Below are positions 1,967 to 59,990 of a stretch of 64,000 nucleotides of DNA, piece after piece. The position numbers and the translations under genes are program-made. Below the pieces are notes generated by a model, which was given only the letters and a program-made list of their open reading frames with translations, was not told the origin of the DNA and ran no database searches. The DNA is from an uncultured Holophagales bacterium (GTDB lineage: Bacteria > Acidobacteriota > Thermoanaerobaculia > Multivoradales > UBA5704): the NCBI GenBank assembly GCA_963842525.1, contig CAWJGT010000032.1, positions 1-64,000 on the forward strand. Direction: 5' to 3'. The first letter of the stretch is position 1, and each line of letters starts with the position of its first letter.

Positions 1967-3058
1967 ATGGCAACTGATTTCGATGCCGCGGTGTGGGACG
2001 CGCTGAAGACGATCAAGTTCCCGGGCATGAGCCGGGACATCGTCTCCTTCGGCTTCGTGAGCCGCGTTCGCGCCTGCGCCGGTTCGGCCGTCGTCGACCT
2101 GCAGATCGGCACCCAGAACGAGGCCGCGGCCCAGCGGGTCAAGGAAGAGGTCGAGAGGGTGGTCGGCGCCCTGCCCGACTTCCAGGAGGTGCAGGTCAAC
2201 CTGCTCGTGAGCCGGCCGCCCTCGCGCGAGGAGACGGCTCAGAAGGCGATCGCCCAGGACCCGGGCCTCATCCCCGAGGTCAAGCACGTGGTGGCGGTGG
2301 CGAGCGGCAAAGGGGGCGTCGGCAAGTCGACCGTGGCGGCGAACCTGGCCGTCCAGTTGGCCAAGCTCGGCTACAAGGTGGGCCTGCTCGACTCCGATAT
2401 CTACGGCCCGTCCATCCCCATGATGTTCGGCATCACAGAAAAGCCGCAGGTGATCGGCAACCGCATCCATCCTTTCGAGAAGTACGGCATCAAGGTGATG
2501 TCCCTCGGCTTCATCCTGGACACCGACACGCCGGTGATCTGGCGCGGCCCGATGGTGATGAAGGCCATCGAGCAGATGCTCGGCGATGTCGAATGGGGGG
2601 CGCTCGATTACCTGATCCTCGATCTGCCGCCGGGCACCGGCGACGCGCAGCTCACGGTGACGCAGCGCGTCCCCCTTGCCGGAGCGGTGATCGTGACCAC
2701 GCCGCAGGACGTCGCCCTGATCGACGCCCGCAAGGGCCTGGCCATGTTCAAGAAGGTCAACGTGCCGGTAATCGGGATCATCGAGAACATGTCGACCTTC
2801 ATCTGCCCGCACTGCGGCCAGCCCACGGACATCTTCAAGAAGGAAGGCGGGCGCAAGACCGCCGACCTCCTGGGCACGGCCTTCCTCGGCGCCATCCCGC
2901 TCGATCCCAAGATCGTCCTGGGCGGCGACGCCGGCGTGCCGATCGTGGTCTCCGAGCCCCAGGGGGCCCACTCTGACGCCTTCCGCCACGTGGCCGAAGC
3001 CGTGGTCGAGGAGGTCGAGCGGCAGGAGGCGGTCAAGCCGAAGCTGTCGATCGTGTGA
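1967..3058 (+). CDS. apbC: Mrp/NBP35 Fe-S cluster carrier ATPase
   Basis: ASGKGGVGKST, D..IYGPS, WRGPM, DLPPGTGD, ENMS.F.CPHC motifs. Confidence 0.93.
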   Translation: MATDFDAAVWDALKTIKFPGMSRDIVSFGFVSRVRACAGSAVVDLQIGTQNEAAAQRVKEEVERVVGALPDFQEVQVNLLVSRPPSREETAQKAIAQDPGLIPEVKHVVAVASGKGGVGKSTVAANLAVQLAKLGYKVGLLDSDIYGPSIPMMFGITEKPQVIGNRIHPFEKYGIKVMSLGFILDTDTPVIWRGPMVMKAIEQMLGDVEWGALDYLILDLPPGTGDAQLTVTQRVPLAGAVIVTTPQDVALIDARKGLAMFKKVNVPVIGIIENMSTFICPHCGQPTDIFKKEGGRKTADLLGTAFLGAIPLDPKIVLGGDAGVPIVVSEPQGAHSDAFRHVAEAVVEEVERQEAVKPKLSIV

Positions 3059-3262
3059 GCGCGATTGAGGTCCGCGAGCGATCGTGGAGTGGGGCCTGGG
3101 AACGCGGGCGCCCCGCCCGCTCTTCGGGCTTGGTGTCGTGGCGCTCAACCGTTTCGGCACCCTGCTGTTCAAAAGGGTCACCGGCCTGCCCGAAGCCGCA
3201 GAGATCGGCGTATCCCGGGGGCGGCTCGCGCCACACCAGCGGCGGCAGATCGTCCCTCCCTT

Positions 3263-4570
3263 TCACGATTTCTCTCCGGAGGCGGCCTCGAACCGCAGCT
3301 CGGGGTCGTGGCGAGACCGCTGGAAATAGGTGGCCATCTGGTGGAGGAGGTCGAGGGTGACCTCCTCCGCTTCGGCGGCCTGCCGGAAGAGCAGGAGCGC
3401 TGCCAGGGCCTCCTCGTGGACGTCGCGCGACTCGAAGATGGGCACCATCTCGGCGGCGAGCTGCTTCAGGGCCGCCTTCTCCCCGCGCACCGCATGGACC
3501 ATGGCGAGGTCGAGCGAGACCATCGCGGCGTCGAAGCCGATGCCGCGCTCGAGGAAGGCGTCCCGCGCCGACCGTAGAGCCGCCTCGGCCTCGTCCAACC
3601 GGCCCAGCTCGCGGCCGACCCGGCCTTCGAGCCAGCGCAGGCGAACCAGGTTCATTGGCTCGCCGAGGTCGAGGTAGAGCTGCCGCGTTTTCTCGATGTC
3701 CTGCTGCGCCTCCTGCGGATGGCCGCTGTCGGTGAGGAACCAGATGAGGTTGTGCCGGGCCGAGACCTGGAGGCGCGGCTCTTCGAGCAGATCGATCCGG
3801 TCCAGTCCCTTGCGGATCAGCCGGACCGCCTCTACCCACCGGCCGGCGTAGCCATGGGCGGTCCCCTTCTTGATCAGTGCCTTTCCTTCGAGGTGGCGGT
3901 CCCGCGCTTGGCGGTAGATGTCGATCGCGCCGTCGAGCAGTTTGACGGCCTCGTCGAACCGGCCCTGGGAGGCGCGCAGGGAGGCCTTGAAGCCGAGGAT
4001 CTCGGCCTCGGTGTAGGCGTCGCCGTCGCCGCGCTGGAAGTGCTCCTCGGCCCGGCCCAGCGCCTCCTCGGCCCGCCGCAGGTCCGAGGCGATCCGCCGG
4101 GAATTGCCGAGGTGGGCCCAGGCCAGGGCCCGGGCGTCCTCGACCCGCATCGCGCCGTAGTGGTCCGGGTCCAGGCGCTCGGCCACGGCCACGGCGAGCC
4201 CGGCCAGCTCCACCGCGGCCTCCGGGTCCCGGAACCAGGCCGCCCGGCTTTTCTTGCTGAGCAGGTCGCAGAGCAGCAGGGCGTGGAACCGCACCTCCCC
4301 CTCGACCAGTCCCCGCCGCTCGGAGGCGGGTCTTCCCAGGAGGTCCGCGAGGAGCCGCGCCGCCTCGTCGATCTCCTGCAGGATCGCCGAAAGCTCGCCC
4401 GGCGCGGCGGCGAAGACCCGGTCGAACACCGGGTCGTAGTGGGCGCCGGCGGCGGCCTGGCAGGCCGGGCACGCGGCCAGGTGGCGCTGGACCTCCCGGC
4501 GCTCGTCGGCGGAGAGCTGGCCCTGCATGTAGCGGGCGAGGGTCTGCGGATCGGGGTGGCGTTCAGTCAT
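3263..4570 (-). CDS. zf-HC2 (anti-sigma-type zinc finger) plus TPR-like helical repeat protein, 435 aa
   Basis: Start ATG at 4570 gives MTERHPDPQTLARYMQGQLSADERREVQRHLAACPACQ (HxxxCxxC), followed by TPR-like helices (AWAHLGNSRRI, LRWLEGRV, AAMVSLDLA). The start overlaps the end of the upstream small ORF. Confidence 0.8.
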   Translation of the reverse strand: MTERHPDPQTLARYMQGQLSADERREVQRHLAACPACQAAAGAHYDPVFDRVFAAAPGELSAILQEIDEAARLLADLLGRPASERRGLVEGEVRFHALLLCDLLSKKSRAAWFRDPEAAVELAGLAVAVAERLDPDHYGAMRVEDARALAWAHLGNSRRIASDLRRAEEALGRAEEHFQRGDGDAYTEAEILGFKASLRASQGRFDEAVKLLDGAIDIYRQARDRHLEGKALIKKGTAHGYAGRWVEAVRLIRKGLDRIDLLEEPRLQVSARHNLIWFLTDSGHPQEAQQDIEKTRQLYLDLGEPMNLVRLRWLEGRVGRELGRLDEAEAALRSARDAFLERGIGFDAAMVSLDLAMVHAVRGEKAALKQLAAEMVPIFESRDVHEEALAALLLFRQAAEAEEVTLDLLHQMATYFQRSRHDPELRFEAASGEKS

Positions 4571-4823
4571 CTCGCGGCTCCTTGGGAGAGGGGTTGGCGG
4601 TGCGCCGGATCGCCTTCTCGAGCCAGTCGAGCAGCCACCACTCGGGATTGCGCACCCGGTCCCACCGGTAGAGGTACGAGCGCCATGCCTCGGCGGCCAG
4701 ACACGCCGCCTCCTCCAAAGGAACCCCATGACGCAGGAACAGACGCGCCATCCTGGGCCGGATCTTCGCCAGGAGCTTGTCGAGCTCCTCTCGCGTCGGA
4801 CGGTTGGAGGATTCCCCGGGCAT
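4563..4823 (-). CDS. Small protein resembling an isolated sigma-70/ECF region 2, no region 4
   Basis: ELDKLLAKIRPRMARLFLRHGVPLEEAACLAAEAWRSYLYRWDRVRNPEWWLLDWL resembles ECF sigma region 2.1-2.4 (x-AEDL-QE..L...W...RNP..WL pattern). Overlaps the start of the zf-HC2-TPR gene. Confidence 0.55.
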   Translation of the reverse strand: MPGESSNRPTREELDKLLAKIRPRMARLFLRHGVPLEEAACLAAEAWRSYLYRWDRVRNPEWWLLDWLEKAIRRTANPSPKEPRDD

Positions 4824-4872
4824 GTAGTCGCTCTCGCGGACAAGAAGGTAGCGCAAACCGGGAATCTCTGCA

Positions 4873-4915
4873 AGAGAAAAAGAGAACCCGGGGGGCCACC
4901 GGTGGAGCCCCCGGG
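4873..4915 (-). terminator. Intrinsic terminator after the peptide precursor gene
   Basis: GC hairpin CCCGGGGG...CCCCCGGG (4887-4915), followed on the minus strand by TTCTCTTTTTCTCTT, about 20 bp after the stop at 4938. Confidence 0.7.
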
Positions 4916-4937
4916 GGAGCGCGTGAAGAGGGTGAGG

Positions 4938-5219
4938 CTAGCCGTCCGGGTCGATGGTGCCGCGGTTGTCGGAGTCGGCGCTGGCGCCGTTCGGGTCGAT
5001 GGTGATGCGGTTGTCGCTCTGGGACCCGGAGGGGCAGCCGTCCGGGTCGATGCAGCCCCGGTTGTCGGTGTCCGCGCCCAGGAAGGCCCAAAGCGAGGAG
5101 AGGAGAGTGGGGTCTGCGGACGCGGTGACCCCCGGAGCCGCCGCCGCCGGCAGCGGCAGCAGCAGGACGGCGGCGAGAATCCAGACACCCAGGAAACGGA
5201 AGCGGATCGTAAGGGTCAT
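4938..5219 (-). CDS. Small secreted peptide precursor with three DNRxxIDPxG repeats (93 aa)
   Basis: Signal peptide MTLTIRFRFLGVWILAAVLLLPLPAAAA. Cores DNRGCIDPDG, DNRITIDPNG and DNRGTIDPDG-stop. Purine-rich RBS upstream and own terminator downstream. Confidence 0.75.
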   Translation of the reverse strand: MTLTIRFRFLGVWILAAVLLLPLPAAAAPGVTASADPTLLSSLWAFLGADTDNRGCIDPDGCPSGSQSDNRITIDPNGASADSDNRGTIDPDG

Positions 5220-5407
5220 GGCGGGGTTACCCCTTTCCAGGGCAGGCAAGCGGCGCAGCCTTCAGCGGCCGGCGGATCCTGTCCTTGGGGGTAAGAGTAA
5301 CCATCGCGGTCCCCGGAGGCGCGAGATGCGTGTCGCCTCGTTCAGTAAACAGCTCTATCTTGTTTCTGCAATCTAGAAGTGCTAGTTTGTGCGCAAAGGC
5401 GGGCAGG

Positions 5408-5782
5408 ATGATGAACGGACGAGGCAGGGTTCTTGCGGCAGCAGTAGCCTTGAGCTTCCTGATCCCCAGTGCGTCTCAAGCAGGCTGGCTTGGCCCCGGT
5501 TGCTGGATCTGCGAATTCACCTCAATCGTTGGGATGTGGTCGCGATGCAAGATGGTTGGGCACGAAGAAGAAGGAGAGGGTACGAACTGCCGCGACGACG
5601 CTATAATGGGTCCGTCGTGCTTTACCAACGGCGTGGCCTGCTATAACACAGTAGTGACCGGGGGTGGTGGTGGCGGTGGCACGGGCGGCTCCGGAGGCGG
5701 AGGCAGCACCTGCCATGTTGGGTCGGCGTCCTGGTGCCCCCCAGCGTGTGCGACCTGTACGAGGGACCCCTACGCCAACTGA
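5408..5782 (+). CDS. Small secreted cysteine-rich protein (10 Cys, Gly linker)
   Basis: Signal peptide ending ASQA, a 6-Cys domain, a G-rich linker, then Cx7CPPxCxxC. Confidence 0.7.
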   Translation: MMNGRGRVLAAAVALSFLIPSASQAGWLGPGCWICEFTSIVGMWSRCKMVGHEEEGEGTNCRDDAIMGPSCFTNGVACYNTVVTGGGGGGGTGGSGGGGSTCHVGSASWCPPACATCTRDPYAN

Positions 5783-5797
5783 TCCAGGCAGAGCGAC

Positions 5798-8104
5798 GTG
5801 AGACTCCTTCAATTCTCTCGGTCTGTCCTTCTCGGCCTTCTGGTACCACTGGCCGCCTCGGCGCACGAAACACCGCCCGTACGGCTCACGATCGAGATGT
5901 TGCCCATCGGGTCCGGCCAGCCTCTCGCGGGGACGTTGGTCCTGCGTCCCGTCAACGGGAAACTGGAGAGCTCCCTTCGCGTGCCCGTCCACGGTCCGGC
6001 CCCGCTCGCGGTAGAGATCTCCCCAGGGTCTCCCTGGCAGATCCTCGGCGAGGTCGCCGGTCACTGGGCCCCCCGGCGGGTGCTGCCTGCGGGAAAGCCG
6101 GGAATGGAGATGCTCCACCGCCTTCCGCTCTGGCCCGTCGCCAAGGCTTCGGGGGTGGTCAAGGTCGAAAAGGGAGAGAGCCGGCCCAAGGAGCTGAAGC
6201 TCGAGATTCGGGCCACGGGAAACCGCACGACCCTGCGGGATGTGCCGGTATCTCAGGTGTCCTGCCCGGTGGCGGACAACGCGTCCTGGTCCTGCGAGCT
6301 CCCCGCGGCAGCTCTCGACCTGGTCCTCACCGCGGAGGGTTTCGTGCCGCACTACGGGTGGGGCGTGCCCTTCAAGGCCGGCGAAGACCGGCCTTTCGGC
6401 GTCGTCGAGCTGAAGCGGGGCGCTTCGGTCGTGGGTTGGGTGACGGTCGAGGAGGGCTCTCCGGCGCCCGGCTGCCGCGTCCGTCTCTCCCCTCTCGTGG
6501 CTCCGGGAGGACGCCGCGATCCGGCCACCGAGAAGATCAAGCGGCTGACCCTGGAGGCGGCGGTCAACGAACGGGGCTTCTTCCAGATCACAGGTGTACC
6601 GCCGGGTAGTTACCTCCTGGAAGCCGAGCAGCCCGGCTTTGCAACAGCCAGGATGTCGCCGCTGGAGATCTGGGAGAAATCCGAGACCTCGCTCCAGCAG
6701 CCTCTCGTCCTCCGGCGCCCGCTCAACATCGAGCTGCAGATCGTTCCCGCGGTGGACTGGATCGGCAAGCTCTGGAAGATAAGCGTTGCGCGGCGCTCGG
6801 ATTTCAGCGCCAGCTTTGATCCTGCGCCCGTCTACGAGGGGCCTGCCGATGAGCAGGGCCGGATGACTCTTCGCGGCCAGGCGCCGGGGACGTTCTGGAT
6901 CGTGGTATCGGATTCCGCGGACAACCAGCTCTACAACGATTTCGGCGTACCGATCCAGGAGCCCGGGGACGCCCAGCGGGTCATCGAGATCGGCGCCGTG
7001 TCCGTGCGGGGCCGGGTCCTGTTCGGCAAGGAGCCCCTCGCGGCGACCCTCTCGTTCGGCGGCCGCTCCGGCGCCGTCCGGGTGGCCATGGAGTCCGATG
7101 AGGAGGGCTCCTTCGACGGCATGCTCCCGCGGGACGGCGCCTGGCGGGTCTACGTGCGCTCCGCCGACGGCGAAGTGGAGGCCAATACGAAGGTCTCGGT
7201 CGAGGCGAACGATCAAGGCCGGGCGTTGGTGACCGTCTCGTTGCCGGACACCCACCTGTTCGGGCGGGTCGTGGACGAGCAATCGAAGCCGGTGGCGGGC
7301 GCCTCTGTACAAATCGAGACGGGACAGGACGGCCAGCAGGTGTGGAGCGACGCCCAAGGGCGGTTTGAGGTGCGCGGGCTGCCTCCGGGGCTGCTGACCG
7401 CCGCAGCAAAGCTCTATAGGCCCTCGGGATCGGCGACGAGCGAGCCGGCGCAGGTGTTCGTGGCGGAAGGCCAGCCCACGGGGCCGGTCGAGCTTCGGCT
7501 CCGCCGGAGCAAGCCGTTCCTGGGACAGGTCGTGTCCGCGCGGGGACCTGTGCCGGGGGCCTCCCTGGAGATCTTCTCCCGCCGGCCCGCCGCCTGGTTC
7601 GCAAGCTCGGCACGGACCGGCCTGGATGGATCCTTTTCGGCCCAGGTCCCCGAACCGACCGAAGCCGTGGTCGCCGTCGTCAGCGCTCCGGGCAACGCCC
7701 TCAAGGTGTTCGAGGTCGAGGCCACCGGAGCGCCGGTGACCCTTTCAGTACCTTCTGTGGGTGGGGCGCTCGAAATCACCTTTCACGAGACTGAGGAAGC
7801 GGTGAGGACCGGAGATCTCCTGCTCCTGTACTTCCAGGACAATCTTCCCTTGTCGCTCCAAACCCTTCGGCAATGGGCGCTCGGCCATGGTGTGAGCTTC
7901 TACACCCCGGGCCCGCCCGGCCGGCTCCACTACCCGAGCCTTGCCCCGGGAGACTATCGAGTCTGTGTCGTCCAGAGCACGATCGTGCCGGATGGGGAGG
8001 TCTCTTCCTGGATCGACAAGACAGGCCGTTGCGCCTCCGGCCGGCTCGAAGGCGGCGAGACGCTCCGGCTTGAGATCCCCGGAGACCCTCCCAGGGAGCC
8101 CTGA
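5798..8104 (+). CDS. Secreted carboxypeptidase-regulatory-like (transthyretin-like beta-sandwich repeat) protein
   Basis: Signal peptide and repeated motifs such as GRVVDEQSKPVAGASV..SDAQGRFEVRGLPPG and GFFQITGVPPGSYLLEAEQPGF. Confidence 0.8.
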   Translation: MRLLQFSRSVLLGLLVPLAASAHETPPVRLTIEMLPIGSGQPLAGTLVLRPVNGKLESSLRVPVHGPAPLAVEISPGSPWQILGEVAGHWAPRRVLPAGKPGMEMLHRLPLWPVAKASGVVKVEKGESRPKELKLEIRATGNRTTLRDVPVSQVSCPVADNASWSCELPAAALDLVLTAEGFVPHYGWGVPFKAGEDRPFGVVELKRGASVVGWVTVEEGSPAPGCRVRLSPLVAPGGRRDPATEKIKRLTLEAAVNERGFFQITGVPPGSYLLEAEQPGFATARMSPLEIWEKSETSLQQPLVLRRPLNIELQIVPAVDWIGKLWKISVARRSDFSASFDPAPVYEGPADEQGRMTLRGQAPGTFWIVVSDSADNQLYNDFGVPIQEPGDAQRVIEIGAVSVRGRVLFGKEPLAATLSFGGRSGAVRVAMESDEEGSFDGMLPRDGAWRVYVRSADGEVEANTKVSVEANDQGRALVTVSLPDTHLFGRVVDEQSKPVAGASVQIETGQDGQQVWSDAQGRFEVRGLPPGLLTAAAKLYRPSGSATSEPAQVFVAEGQPTGPVELRLRRSKPFLGQVVSARGPVPGASLEIFSRRPAAWFASSARTGLDGSFSAQVPEPTEAVVAVVSAPGNALKVFEVEATGAPVTLSVPSVGGALEITFHETEEAVRTGDLLLLYFQDNLPLSLQTLRQWALGHGVSFYTPGPPGRLHYPSLAPGDYRVCVVQSTIVPDGEVSSWIDKTGRCASGRLEGGETLRLEIPGDPPREP

Positions 8105-8169: not shown

Positions 8170-8700
8170 TATCCGAGGGCTTCCGGACGGTTCCGAAGGC
8201 CTGGAGAAGAATTCCGAAGGGCTTCAGAGTCTCCCGGAAGCCTTCCGGAAACTTTTCGAGGCGTCCAGAAGTTTTCCGGAGGGCTTCCGGACAGTTCCGA
8301 AGGCCCGGAGAAGAATTCCGAAGGGCTTCAGAATCTTCCGGAAGCCTTCCAGAAACTTTTCGAGGCGTCCAGAAGTTTTCCGGGAGGCTTCTGGACGGTT
8401 CCGAAGGCCTGGAGGAAAATTCTGGAGGCTTTCGGAATTCTTCGGAAGGGCTGGAAAAAATTTTGGAGGGCTCCAGAATTTTTCCGAAGCCCTCCAGAAC
8501 CGTCCGGAAGGCCTGGAGAACCATCCGGAAGCCCTGGAGAAGAATTCTGGAGGGCTTCAGAATTCTTCGGAAGCCCTGGAAAAACTTTTGGCAGGCTCCA
8601 GAAATTTTCCGAAGGCCTCCAGAACTGTCCAGAAGCCCTTCGGAACTGTCCGGAAGCCCTTCCGAATCCTCCCGAGTCCTTCGAAATCTCCTCCCAACGC
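8170..8700. repeat. Degenerate ~21-bp-period array with a 104-bp higher-order repeat
   Basis: Units such as TTCCGAAGGCCTGGAGAAGAA and TTCCGAAGGGCTTCAGAGTCT. Super-units start at 8191, 8295 and 8399. Rich in TTCCGGAA-like palindromes. Confidence 0.85.
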
Positions 8701-36227: not shown

Positions 36228-36655
36228 AACCAGCGGCGCACGCTCCGCAAAGCCAGTGTGAGCTCACACTGGAGCAGCGTCCCGGGACACTGGCCCAGCG
36301 CACGCTCCGCAAACCCAGCGTGAGCTACGCTGGCGCAGCGTGTCGGGACGCTGGCTCAGCGTACGCTCCGCAAACCCAGTGAGAGCTTACGCTGGCGCAG
36401 CGTGTCGAGACACTGGCTCAGCGTACGCTCCGCAAACCCAGCGTGAGCTGACGCTGGCGCAGCGTGTCGGGACGCTGGCTCAGCGTACGCTCCGCAAACC
36501 CAGCGTGAGCTCACGCTGGCGCAGCGTGTCGGGACATTGGCCCAGCGTACGCTCCGCAAACCCAGCGTGAGCTCACGCTGGCGCAGCGTGTCGGGACACT
36601 GGCCCAGCGTACGCTCCGCAAACCCAGCGTGAGCTCACGCTGGCGCAGCGTCCCG
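36228..36655. repeat. 62-bp tandem repeat (about 7 copies) with an internal perfect 20-bp palindrome
   Basis: CGCTCCGCAA recurs at 36241, 36303, 36364, 36426, 36488, 36550 and 36612. The consensus unit contains CCAGCGTGAGCTCACGCTGG and is built from three 20-21-bp CAGCGT-initiated subunits. Confidence 0.92.
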
Positions 36656-38029
36656 AGACTGAAACGCTCGTCCAGAACTTTCGAGACACCTTCTGAACGG
36701 CTCTTGACCTTCCTCCGCTCCGGCCTGGGGTGGAGCCAGGCGGAGCTGGGCGAAGCCGCCAACGTCAGCCCGAGCCTCCTCAACGACTACGAGCACGGCA
36801 GGAAGGACCTCAAGAGAGACCGGCTGGAGTTCCTGGTCTCCTTTATGGGGCACAGGCCCAAGGAGATCGACGCCGACCGGGTTCTGGCAGAGGCGTTCTT
36901 TGCCGGCTGCTCGCTCTGGGTGGCGAAGCTCTCGAAGCCATCGAGGCGGTCAAATCCGACATGCAGCCGACGGGTACCCGCCGTGCTCCGAGGCGAAGGA
37001 CCGCGAATTGGCGGCCGGCTCTGTGGGTGCGCCTGGAACGGCAACAGCTCACGGCAACGGACTGCGCTGGTTGAAGAAGATGAGGAGTTCCGAGCCTGGG
37101 CGCTCAGCGAGCTTGTCGCGGCGAAGAGCATAGAGAAGGCGCCGAGCAGCCCGGCCGAAGCCCTGGAGCTTGCCATGCTGGCGCTCCGTATCGCCGAGCT
37201 GTGCCCCGGCGAAAAATGGCTGCGCGAGCGCGCCCAGGGCAATGCATGGTTCCATGTAGCGAATGCCCGCCGCGTGACCAATGATCTCCGCGGCAGCGAC
37301 GTGGCCCTCGCCACGGCGACGAGGCACTGGGAGGCCGGGGCCAGCGGAGATCCTGGGCTCTTCAATGAGGCCATCGTGCTCGGGCTGGAAGCAACCATCC
37401 GGAAGTCGCAACGCCGCTTTCCCGAGGCCCTGCGGCGGATCGAAGAGGCTCTAGCTGCCGACCAGGGAGGCCTCCGCGCACAGTTGCTCCTTGCCAAGGC
37501 TCAGATTCTGGGGGCGGTCGGAGACATCGAGGCCTCGACCGAGGTGCTCCGCGAGGCGATTCCTTACATCGCCGAGGACCGGGAGCCGCGGACAGCGCTC
37601 GGCGTACGCTTCCAGCTCATGATCTGTCTCTGCCTACAGGACCGTGCTGCGGAGGCGGCACACGAGCTTCCCAATCTGCATGTCCTCGCCGAGAAGCTCG
37701 ATCAGGACATGGACCGCGTGCGTTTGGTGTGGCTCGAAGGGAAGGTCGCCGCGGGCACCGGCAGGGTCGAGGAAGCCGAGGAAGCTTTCGAGCAGGCCCG
37801 CCGCAAGTTCGTTTCTTACAAGCCTCCTCTGGTCTTCAACTACGCGCTGGTGAGCCTGGACCTGGGGCTGCTGCTTCTGGGGCAGGGCCGGAACATCGAG
37901 GTGGCGACCCTGGCCGAGGAGATGGTTTCGATCTTCACCGGCAGCCTTGGTCCGCTTTCTCCGTCTTGTTCATGCGCAGAAGAGTGTAGCATCGGGCCTT
38001 GCGGCCCAATTACCTCGCCCCCCGGGTAG
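36629..38029 (+). CDS. XRE-HTH + TPR-like regulator (start uncertain; compensating frameshifts or deletions)
   Basis: LRSGLGWSQAELGEAANVSPSLLNDYEHG (XRE HTH), then AWFHVANARRVTNDL, LVWLEGKVA and ALVSLDLG as in the 3263-4570 protein. The middle (~36880-37070) and the C-terminus read better in other frames. Confidence 0.7.
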   Translation: MSSRWRSVPRLKRSSRTFETPSERLLTFLRSGLGWSQAELGEAANVSPSLLNDYEHGRKDLKRDRLEFLVSFMGHRPKEIDADRVLAEAFFAGCSLWVAKLSKPSRRSNPTCSRRVPAVLRGEGPRIGGRLCGCAWNGNSSRQRTALVEEDEEFRAWALSELVAAKSIEKAPSSPAEALELAMLALRIAELCPGEKWLRERAQGNAWFHVANARRVTNDLRGSDVALATATRHWEAGASGDPGLFNEAIVLGLEATIRKSQRRFPEALRRIEEALAADQGGLRAQLLLAKAQILGAVGDIEASTEVLREAIPYIAEDREPRTALGVRFQLMICLCLQDRAAEAAHELPNLHVLAEKLDQDMDRVRLVWLEGKVAAGTGRVEEAEEAFEQARRKFVSYKPPLVFNYALVSLDLGLLLLGQGRNIEVATLAEEMVSIFTGSLGPLSPSCSCAEECSIGPCGPITSPPG

Positions 38030-59559: not shown

Positions 59560-59990
59560 GAACGTGTTTCCCCCGATCCTCCTCGCACTGCGGACGATCC
59601 GGATTGCGTAGAGGACGGTTCTCGATGCGCAGCGGATGGAGCAGAACGAGTTACGAACGGTTCCAAGCGGGCAACGAACCGTCCTGAACACATTGCGGAT
59701 CGTCCGGAACGGGCAGCGAACCGTCCGCAGCGCATAGCGGACGGTTCTGAATGGCCTCCGAACCGTCCTTAGCGCGTTTCGGATGGTTCTGAACGGGCAT
59801 CGAATCATCCGGAACGCATAGCGGACGGTTCTGAACGCACAACGAACCGTCCGGAATACGTTCCGGATGATCCTGAACGGGCAGCGAACCGTCCTGAACG
59901 CACCCCGTGTCGCGCGGAACGCGTTCAACACCGTCCGCAACGCGATTGGAACCGTCTGCAACGCGGTCGACGTCGTGCCGAACGCGTCGC
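59560..59990. repeat. Degenerate 21-bp-period tandem array
   Basis: Consecutive units GCGGACGGTTCTGAATGGCCT / CCGAACCGTCCTTAGCGCGTT / TCGGATGGTTCTGAACGGGCA. The minus frame reads heptads FRTVRCP/FRIIRNV. Confidence 0.85.

Follow-up and report, generated by a model that had tools for sequence, protein, structure and literature searches.

The window analysed here is a stretch of 64,000 nucleotides (positions 1 to 64,000 of contig CAWJGT010000032.1, called C32 below) from the genome of an uncultured Holophagales bacterium (9.95 Mb, 67-69% GC). Near its beginning three genes follow each other on the minus strand. They code for a small secreted precursor with three copies of a ten-residue core ending in DPxG, for an 86-aa protein resembling region 2 of sigma factors (the mini-sigma in what follows) and for a soluble protein in which a zinc anti-sigma (ZAS) domain is fused to tetratricopeptide repeats (TPR). 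The best explanation of this locus is that it represents one cassette of a lineage-specific and heavily expanded peptide-receptor family found in one order of the Acidobacteriota. The family of cassettes is large and real, and apparently it is undescribed.

Evidence for such a family comes from the association of precursor and TPR genes along the genome. A six-frame search by regular expression returned about 32 small open reading frames (ORFs) with a signal-like N-terminus, a helix of the W-x-x-L-x-x-x-W type and two to four [ILVM]DPxG units, and phmmer found 125 relatives of the third gene in the same genome. Among 34 candidate precursors, 31 were located 700 bp or less from one of these paralogues (C19:85914 and C34:73284, two ORFs that obviously did not belong here, had been removed by eye before this count). 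A recount used stricter criteria that are independent of the number of repeats, namely a length of 40-200 aa from Met, a signal-like N-terminus and one [ILVMF]DPxG within the last 45 residues; 57 of the 70 secreted small ORFs obtained in this way lie within 1.5 kb of an ORF matching the TPR profile, versus 271 of 5000 random positions. An earlier sequence-only reading of this DNA, which proposed a peptide-signalling module, had named missing linkage of IDPxG precursors to this TPR family as one of the results that would speak against it, and the outcome of this test is strongly positive. Counted from the side of the TPR genes, a nearby peptide ORF accompanies 15 of 17 genes with an N-terminal helix-turn-helix (HTH) domain, 20 of 28 of the ZAS type and 16 of 32 others. 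Many TPR genes first scored as peptide-less are preceded by a single-core precursor ending in ...C-I-D-P-x-G-x-P-x-P-C. At C9:424157-434272, for example, five ZAS-TPR genes stand in tandem, and in front of each there is a secreted ORF of 87-109 aa that has one core of this kind at its C-terminus.

The cassettes are self-contained, since no gene family other than those of the peptide, the TPR protein and the sigma recurs within 6 kb of 33 cassettes, in a survey where only families common to several loci are detectable. Around the same 33 cassettes there was no recurrent family of dedicated processing genes, of a linked transporter or of modifying enzymes. The genome codes for three substrate-binding proteins of the Opp type (SBP_bac_5), and an importer of this kind may exist. 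Two of these genes (C9:403765-404823 and C1:375359-376348) are within about 4 kb of TPR-family genes, which could be due to chance, and one SBP_bac_5 gene is found about 3 kb from the cassette at C9:408 kb, possibly also a coincidence.

Translation of the window gave the three genes of interest, all on the minus strand, with the following features:

4938..5219, minus strand: precursor gene, 93 aa plus stop, with a Sec-type signal peptide, a Trp-containing helix (LLSSLWAFLG) and three 10-residue cores
5136..5219, minus strand: signal peptide, residues 1-28, from sequence and hydropathy, with probable cleavage after the AAAA run as judged by eye
5037..5066, minus strand: core 1, DNRGCIDPDG, residues 52-61, with C-P directly after it
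4986..5015, minus strand: core 2, DNRITIDPNG, residues 69-78
4941..4970, minus strand: core 3, DNRGTIDPDG, residues 84-93, whose final Gly is the last codon before the stop
4563..4823, minus strand: mini-sigma gene, 86 aa, sigma region 2 only, with an acidic tail ...KEPRDD and without region 4
3263..4570, minus strand: gene of the ZAS-TPR protein, 435 aa plus stop, soluble, coding from 4570 to 3266
4460..4558, minus strand: zinc anti-sigma (zf-HC2) motif, H5 ... H30-x3-C34-x2-C37
3311..4318, minus strand: TPR superhelix (residues 85-420, approximately), where a ligand would presumably bind

The precursor ORF runs from an ATG at 5219 to 4941 with its stop at 4938-4940, and an alternative TTG start at 5249 would lengthen the product to 103 aa. 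Its N-terminus has the organisation of a Sec signal, with R6 and R8 in the n-region, a h-region reaching a maximal 19-residue hydropathy of 2.26 at residues 9-27 and then AAAA/P. Translation and hydropathy confirmed in this way the three co-oriented genes, the 93-aa Sec-type precursor and the three cores, the last of them at the stop codon, as they had been described before. The Cys-x5-Cys pair of core 1 could form a disulfide loop. In the alignment of precursors W44, I57-D58-P59-x-G61 and D90-P91-x-G93 are conserved, and the precursor profile recovers the window gene at C32:4941-5219 with an E-value of 1.5e-27.

Throughout the family the precursors have between one and seven units of ten residues, [DE]-x-[GR]-x-x-[ILM]-D-P-x-G, in two styles, one linear and ending at the stop, the other flanked by Cys (C-x-[IL]-D-P-x-G-x-C) and ending in ...GS. 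In this genome 19 of the 33 precursors have a core exactly at the stop. Identity over the five residues that precede DPxG, itself invariant, is 63% within a precursor versus 31% between precursors, and in 2000 permutations the observed value was never attained. Such a pattern, in which the scaffold is fixed while the variable part is specific to the cassette and homogenised gene by gene, would be the expected product of ligand-receptor specificity, and gene conversion within the repeat array contributes to the homogeneity within each precursor. A Pfam hint of EF-hand_1 on core 1 (E 0.063) was rejected as an identity because it does not reach the cut-off and the paralogues do not keep the G position.

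The third gene product has two recognisable parts. Pfam detects zf-HC2 at residues 12-38 (3e-7, 30.9 bits, cut-off 22.2) and TPR_12 (9.5e-12), which bears out the proposed fusion of an anti-sigma HxxxCxxC finger to TPR repeats; the NCBIfam models for ChrR, RsrA and anti-sigma factors also match the zinc motif, all below their cut-offs. The upstream His and the [HC]x2-5CxxC motif are kept in 26 of 28 ZAS-type paralogues. We found no transmembrane segment in the 435 residues (maximal hydropathy 1.41). An AlphaFold2 model from an alignment of 14 rows (pLDDT 86.5, pTM 0.78) is an all-helical superhelix with 22 helices. The significant Foldseek matches of this model were LGN/Pins in the first place (E 4e-6) and RapJ with its pheromone CSF (4gyo, 4e-5), followed by MalT (domain III), RapI and pheromone-bound Rap proteins of phages, and the matched TPR superhelices hold extended peptides in their groove. 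The modelled fold thus fits peptide binding, although this is no proof of it. A search of PDB sequences retrieved RapH (8.6e-5 over about 100 residues), ranked under kinesin light chain, LGN and designed TPRs, and Pfam and NCBIfam returned generic TPR models only and no described RRNPP receptor family.

The TPR domain is combined with more than one kind of output domain. Of the paralogues, 77 match the TPR profile over more than 250 of its 393 positions, and clustering of their N-termini gave 28 of ZAS type, 17 of HTH_XRE type and 32 short or unclassified. The sequence-only reading had placed the output of the system in a sigma/anti-sigma pair "instead of an HTH", and for the family this does not hold, with 17 of 77 paralogues carrying HTH_XRE and nearly all of these having an adjacent peptide gene. 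A first count of core styles gave the Cys-looped style for 12 of 12 HTH-type genes with a peptide and the linear style for 10 of 13 of the ZAS type. On a FastTree phylogeny of the TPR domains the HTH-type proteins form one clade (support 99) nested among the ZAS-type ones. The exchange between ZAS and HTH is therefore a single event, since the label changes once on the tree, and the peptide gene stayed with the TPR domain through this one change of output. The window itself contains a second TPR paralogue:

36629-38029, plus strand: HTH_31 (2.8e-7)/HTH_3 plus TPR

No xDPxG ORF was found within 1.5 kb of this gene. It is preceded, at 36236-36651, by a 62-bp unit repeated 6.7 times with 92% identity.

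In many paralogous cassettes of the ZAS type a full-length extracytoplasmic function (ECF) sigma of 175-185 aa is encoded directly upstream of the ZAS-TPR gene, with Sigma70_r2 at 1.4e-10 plus region 4 (L006 is an example) and a score of 63 bits, versus a cut-off of 42.9, for the NCBIfam sigma70-ECF model TIGR02937. Such a sigma is present upstream in 10 of 20 loci of other genomes and at C34 of this genome. The corresponding gene of the window is shorter. The mini-sigma ORF begins with an ATG at 4823 and runs to 4566 (an alternative TTG at 4856 would give 97 aa) and it overlaps the TPR gene by 8 nt, ATGACTGA, at 4563-4570. By itself it has no Pfam or NCBIfam match at E <= 1, and a profile made only of mini-sigmas retrieved no sigma from the PDB sequences. 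In hhalign a profile of eight mini-sigmas aligned with the neighbouring family of full-length ECF sigmas, the one detected by Pfam Sigma70_r2, over residues 1-69 of the latter and with a probability of 99.1% (E 1.4e-18). The overlap of the 86-aa protein with the third gene is confirmed, and its proposed kinship with sigma region 2 appears probable from this comparison. Its model is a three-helix bundle (pLDDT 82), for which Foldseek ranked ECF region 2 first (SigW, sigma-E region 2, SigH and PhyR), none of them significantly (E >= 1).

The mini-sigma lacks region 4 and also the DAEDxxQD and YWRxxRR motifs, both near-invariant in the aligned full-length relatives, and for these reasons it is unlikely to recognise promoters or act as a sigma alone. 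The "minimal sigma" with sigma/anti-sigma output of the sequence-only reading can be sustained for paralogous cassettes, which have full-length ECF partners, but not in full for the window copy. Nor does it seem to be half of a split sigma of the SigO-RsoA type. An hmmsearch of all ORFs of the genome with the local ECF region 4 retrieved only complete sigmas belonging to other groups, and we rejected the two-subunit possibility because no separate region-4 polypeptide turned up. The short form makes up a class of its own, 75-105 aa long, with a conserved acidic tail (...KEPEDE) that overlaps the start of the TPR gene. Six region-2-only ORFs were found in this genome. Five of them have a precursor on one side and on the other a TPR gene or what is left of one; the sixth is an orphan on C4 (C4:191657-191881), which has no precursor or TPR gene beside it and is followed by a FAD-type oxidoreductase-like ORF. 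Three other genera have the short form as well, without exception in the position between the genes of precursor and TPR protein. We conclude from these comparisons that the mini-sigma appears to be a derived protein of the sigma-2 type that has been conserved, as opposed to a recent pseudogene, and it is probably functional because it is conserved in several genera.

The same arrangement was found in other genomes. All five loci retrieved with the ZAS-TPR protein of this locus in other Acidobacteriota have a small xDPxG ORF directly upstream, and in the three closest foreign loci the precursor ends in DNRG[TS]IDPNG, as in the window. In these three (L001 2696-2851, L002 2384-2839 and L003 2573-2860) the precursors have 39-41 aa counted from Met, a single core and only a Trp/Leu helix instead of a normal signal peptide, and a second TPR gene is located upstream in place of the mini-sigma. 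With the TPR profile, matches were obtained in 39 of 41 relatives, as a rule 20-45 scored ones per genome. A recognisable precursor was present within 2.5 kb of the best TPR match in about 10 of 20 genomes, a set in which two rows (L018 and L019) were judged spurious. The peptide profile, built from ten precursors, detected members in 24 of 24 genomes of the same family and in 5 of 16 from other families of the order, and in none of the 150 genomes of a phylum sample other than the genome studied here. Many of its matches are 300-700 bp upstream of TPR matches (G016:C2, G010:C3, G024:C3, G003:C60, G004:C389 and G008:C748). No close orthologue of the window locus was present in five genomes of the same genus, where the best match had 70% DNA identity and covered the TPR part only, so that the cassettes appear to turn over quickly.

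Against a much larger collection, 1.84 billion cluster representatives, the peptide profile retrieved 1808 proteins at E <= 0.001, 92 of them at E <= 1e-10. Among the best 150 of the 1808 matches, 144 have 200 aa or less, and of these 135 have a signal-like N-terminus, 139 at least two strict motifs and 73 end exactly in DPxG. None of the database relatives looked up had a name or a Pfam domain; the ESM Atlas neighbours are "hypothetical protein", mostly from Acidobacteriota, and the contigs with related loci come from Acidobacteriota, Thermoanaerobaculia or Holophagales metagenome-assembled genomes. A word-indexed search with the window precursor gave one relative only. Some large secreted metagenome proteins, P0007 (783 aa), P0010 (639 aa), P0012 and P0024, begin with an N-terminal domain, continue with about 40 xDPxG[KR] units in tandem and end in a region of VDEWD repeats, with no Pfam domain; a metagenome scan for P0007 found nothing. 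A full-text search of the open literature found neither an account of this family of peptides nor one of a ZAS-TPR protein that is linked to a peptide or senses one. The opinion that no system with this layout has been described agrees with what we found in the open literature.

Among known systems the nearest in organisation is RRNPP (Rap/Phr, NprR/NprX, PlcR/PapR, PrgX, Rgg/SHP and AimR/AimP). Here too a small gene for an exported pro-peptide adjoins that of a soluble TPR receptor, the active unit would be at or near the C-terminus of the precursor, and a genome contains many paralogous cassettes, each with its own peptide and without dedicated processing genes. The HTH_XRE plus TPR architecture of the 17 local paralogues is shared with RRNPP, the structural matches of the receptor include Rap-pheromone complexes, and the 435-aa soluble protein falls within the size of RRNPP receptors (soluble TPR proteins of roughly 250-500 aa). 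The differences are also clear. The host is a diderm of the Acidobacteriota, whereas RRNPP systems belong to Firmicutes or their mobile elements; the precursors have one to seven repeats of a unit ended by DPxG and often looped by Cys; the receptors mostly have a zinc anti-sigma domain, in some cases accompanied by an ECF sigma; and by sequence there is no detectable membership, only matches to generic TPR models. By analogy, the best current explanation would be that the cassette works like an RRNPP system without being a member of that family by sequence or by taxon. The analogy drawn by the sequence-only reading is upheld by the linkage, the soluble TPR receptor, the Rap-like fold matches, the cassette-specific cores and the lack of dedicated processing genes, and it fails in the exclusion of HTH outputs and in the completeness of the window sigma. 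A published survey with RRNPP_detector concerns Firmicutes, and in its text the words "Acidobacteria", "sigma" and "diderm" occur 0 times (PMC10075063).

The second half of the cassette recalls the pairs of ECF sigmas and ZAS factors such as RsrA/SigR, ChrR/RpoE and RshA/SigH, in the HxxxCxxC motif with its upstream His, in the soluble anti-sigma and, for the paralogous cassettes with a full ECF sigma, in the order sigma - anti-sigma. The known soluble ZAS factors sense redox state or singlet oxygen via the zinc site, unlike the present proteins with a 350-residue TPR domain and a linked peptide gene, and the window sigma consists of region 2 only, with a complete sigma absent at the locus. 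The group ECF270, from an Acidobacteria bacterium, is described as ZAS-regulated by an unknown mechanism (PMC8999054); we set it beside the cassette sigmas by description only. Sigma domains that exist as separate small polypeptides or as decoys are exemplified by SigO-RsoA of Bacillus subtilis, with sigma-2 and sigma-4 on separate polypeptides (PMC7826278), and by PhyR, which sequesters NepR. PhyR-NepR structures are among the weak Foldseek matches of the mini-sigma. The differences are the loss of the motifs of the full-length relatives and the missing region-4-only partner with respect to SigO-RsoA, and the missing receiver domain with respect to PhyR. Multi-copy precursors are known from yeast alpha-factor, fungal and plant multi-core ribosomally synthesized and post-translationally modified peptides (RiPPs) and cyanobactins. 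As in these precursors, near-identical short units separated by short spacers are found here in one secreted precursor; the bacterial host, the Sec export, the absence of a linked protease or modifying enzyme and the definition of the unit by a DPxG turn set the present ones apart.

Putting these likenesses together, we would suggest the following mechanism. The precursor would be exported by Sec and cut to peptides of about ten residues ending in DPxG, some of them disulfide-looped, which would re-enter the cell and bind the concave face of the cognate TPR domain. Binding would alter the N-terminal domain, with a ZAS domain releasing or capturing its sigma or an HTH domain changing its DNA binding, and every cassette would constitute a channel of its own, in the manner of Rap/Phr, PlcR/PapR or AimR/AimP. 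At the window locus the mini-sigma might still bind the ZAS domain, as decoy or adaptor and not as a promoter-recognising factor. This is the weakest step, and the decoy or adaptor role, suggested by analogy, is the most likely one mainly as the most economical guess. For RRNPP-like signalling as such, with the peptide as ligand of the TPR receptor and with binding, processing and re-import taken from the analogy, we would put the chances at about even. The wider proposal is a tentative one that we hold with less than even confidence: it would be the first peptide-pheromone system with export, processing and re-import in a diderm phylum, with dozens of orthogonal channels per genome, a TPR receptor wired via ZAS to an ECF sigma or via HTH to DNA, and mini-sigmas as a new class of adaptors.

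Several observations weigh against the peptide being a ligand, and they have to be considered together with the main rival, in which the peptide is a regulated output. In that case the TPR regulator would sense a cytoplasmic cue or protein and switch on the adjacent gene through its sigma or HTH, and the peptide would act outside, for instance in an antimicrobial role, by binding metals or calcium, or in matrix or adhesion. Adjacency fits a regulator and its target as well as a receptor and its ligand, and alone it cannot separate the two. A peptide of 1 kDa must cross the outer membrane twice to work as an imported signal, and no transporter or other import system was found linked to the cassettes. 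The idea that the peptide follows the TPR domain whatever the output would rest on one event, since the switch between ZAS and HTH occurred once on the paralogue tree. The secreted proteins of 640-780 aa with about 40 DPxG repeats hint that the repeat may have a role other than signalling, the disulfide-looped cores are typical for extracellular peptides, and core 1 has the weak, below-cut-off resemblance to an EF-hand loop mentioned above. A regulated output leaves unexplained why a peptide-binding type of fold should be the conserved partner of two different output domains, why residues on a fixed scaffold are homogenised within each precursor and diversified between cassettes, and why many precursors end exactly at the core. 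Also, dozens of separately regulated paralogous effectors in one genome would be unusual. We regard a regulated output as rather unlikely. The peptide could instead be read before it leaves the cell. The TPR domain would bind the free C-terminus (...IDPDG-COOH) of unexported precursor in the cytoplasm and report precursor load or Sec capacity with no re-import, a logic that resembles that of FlgM/sigma-28. This avoids the problem of the outer membrane and fits a cytoplasmic receptor and the cores found at the extreme C-terminus in more than half of the local precursors (19 of 33) and of the small database relatives (73 of 144). Recognition of C-termini by a TPR "carboxylate clamp" has precedent, being established for the EEVD of Hsp70/Hsp90 and for PTS1. 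Moreover, the closest relatives, in three other genomes, have versions of 39-41 aa with no typical signal peptide; this is another point against an exported ligand, and such versions could act intracellularly. Internal repeats of the core, and disulfide-looped cores that are formed only after export, would be pointless for such feedback, and in this genome 14 of the 33 precursors continue beyond the motif. We find this feedback decidedly improbable.

The sigma/anti-sigma output at the window locus may be degenerating, since the sigma has no region 4 and two of the three nearest paralogues (C29 and C3) have no zinc finger, which is a further point against the peptide as a ligand. Carried to its end, this would make the window cassette a decaying copy, its sigma truncated to a remnant and the module no longer signalling, whatever the rest of the family does. 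The lost motifs of the mini-sigma, its ratio of nonsynonymous to synonymous substitutions (dN/dS) of about 0.5 and up to about 1 in some distant pairs, and the lack of a close orthologue in the same genus (70% DNA identity at best and in the TPR part only) agree with decay. In the least diverged pair dN/dS was about 0.44 for the precursor and 0.51 for the mini-sigma, and the TPR gene gave 0.33. These values speak for genuine coding sequences, and all of them are rough because diverged paralogues have saturated dS. The region-2-only form is intact at six places in the genome, with conserved length and acidic tail, and recurs at the same position in three other genera, and all three window genes are open with their translational overlap kept, all of which makes decay very unlikely. 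A RiPP pathway, with the small ORF as an enzymatically modified multi-core precursor and the TPR protein as a biosynthetic scaffold comparable to the HaaT-type TPR proteins of cyclophane RiPPs, agrees with the multi-core layout and with a match of the ZAS-TPR protein to the NCBIfam HaaT model far below its cut-off (7.4e-11, 40.9 bits vs 1125). No enzyme family recurs within 6 kb of the 33 cassettes, the TPR proteins have regulatory N-termini, ZAS or HTH, and the precursor has a Sec signal and not a leader for a cytoplasmic enzyme, so that such a pathway is scarcely credible.

The non-coding parts of the cassette were also compared, and two features were recorded there:

4872..4916, minus strand: terminator-like GC hairpin and T-rich run, between the precursor and mini-sigma genes
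5220..5282, minus strand: 5' leader in front of the precursor gene; a nested inverted repeat rich in GC, GGACAGG...CCTGCC, stands directly before the Shine-Dalgarno sequence GGAAAGGGG

The GC hairpin is followed by TTCTCTTTTTCTCTT, 20-65 nt 3' of the precursor stop. The hairpin and T-run that the sequence-only reading had taken for the precursor's "own terminator" are thus present, but since two terminator-like sites were found in the region versus 1.3 expected and the z-score of the fold is only -0.27, its role as a terminator is plausible and not significant alone. A similar hairpin and T-run was found, judging by eye, 3' of 8 of 18 related precursors. The leaders of the window precursor and 17 related ones have GGCAGG...CCTGCC around a GGCC hairpin, with the sequence kept among close relatives. 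RNAalifold gave no consensus structure for these 18 leaders; a two-helix structure drawn by hand is 86% paired in eight close leaders, with covariation that is not significant (102 of 500 shuffles were as high), and Rfam has no family match at the locus. We do not claim the leader hairpin as an RNA element, its covariation not being above that of the shuffles. A scan of positions 3000-5900 of the window found no sigma-70 promoter-like site, and inspection by eye found no convincing common ECF-type promoter 5' of the precursors. The sequencing runs listed for the stretch are soil DNA runs in which it has a small share, with no RNA run among them.

Divergent from the precursor, a small secreted-looking Cys- and Gly-rich ORF at 5405-5782 (plus strand) contains GGGGGGGTGGSGGGGSTCHVGSASWCPPACATC and is followed at 5798-8104 (plus strand) by a 768-aa protein with a signal-like start. 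Tandem repeats are found in the window at 8175-8660 and 59668-59902, with periods of 104/125 bp and 42/84 bp respectively, and the array at 8175-8660 yields long repetitive ORFs on both strands.

The Acidobacteriota are among the most abundant soil bacteria and, to our knowledge, almost nothing is known about their signalling. RRNPP-type cassettes of peptide and receptor count as a speciality of Gram-positive bacteria, and we know of none in this phylum, where the present family has up to about 50-70 peptide genes in one genome. Should the peptide prove to be an output, the cassettes would still define a large, undescribed family of peptides secreted by Acidobacteria, along with the regulators dedicated to them. 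If instead it is a ligand, imported peptides would serve signalling between cells or of a cell to itself behind an outer membrane as well, a peptide-binding TPR domain on a soluble ZAS factor would be a new type of input for the switches made of ECF sigmas and anti-sigmas, and these bacteria would hold a large natural set of potentially orthogonal peptide-regulator pairs.

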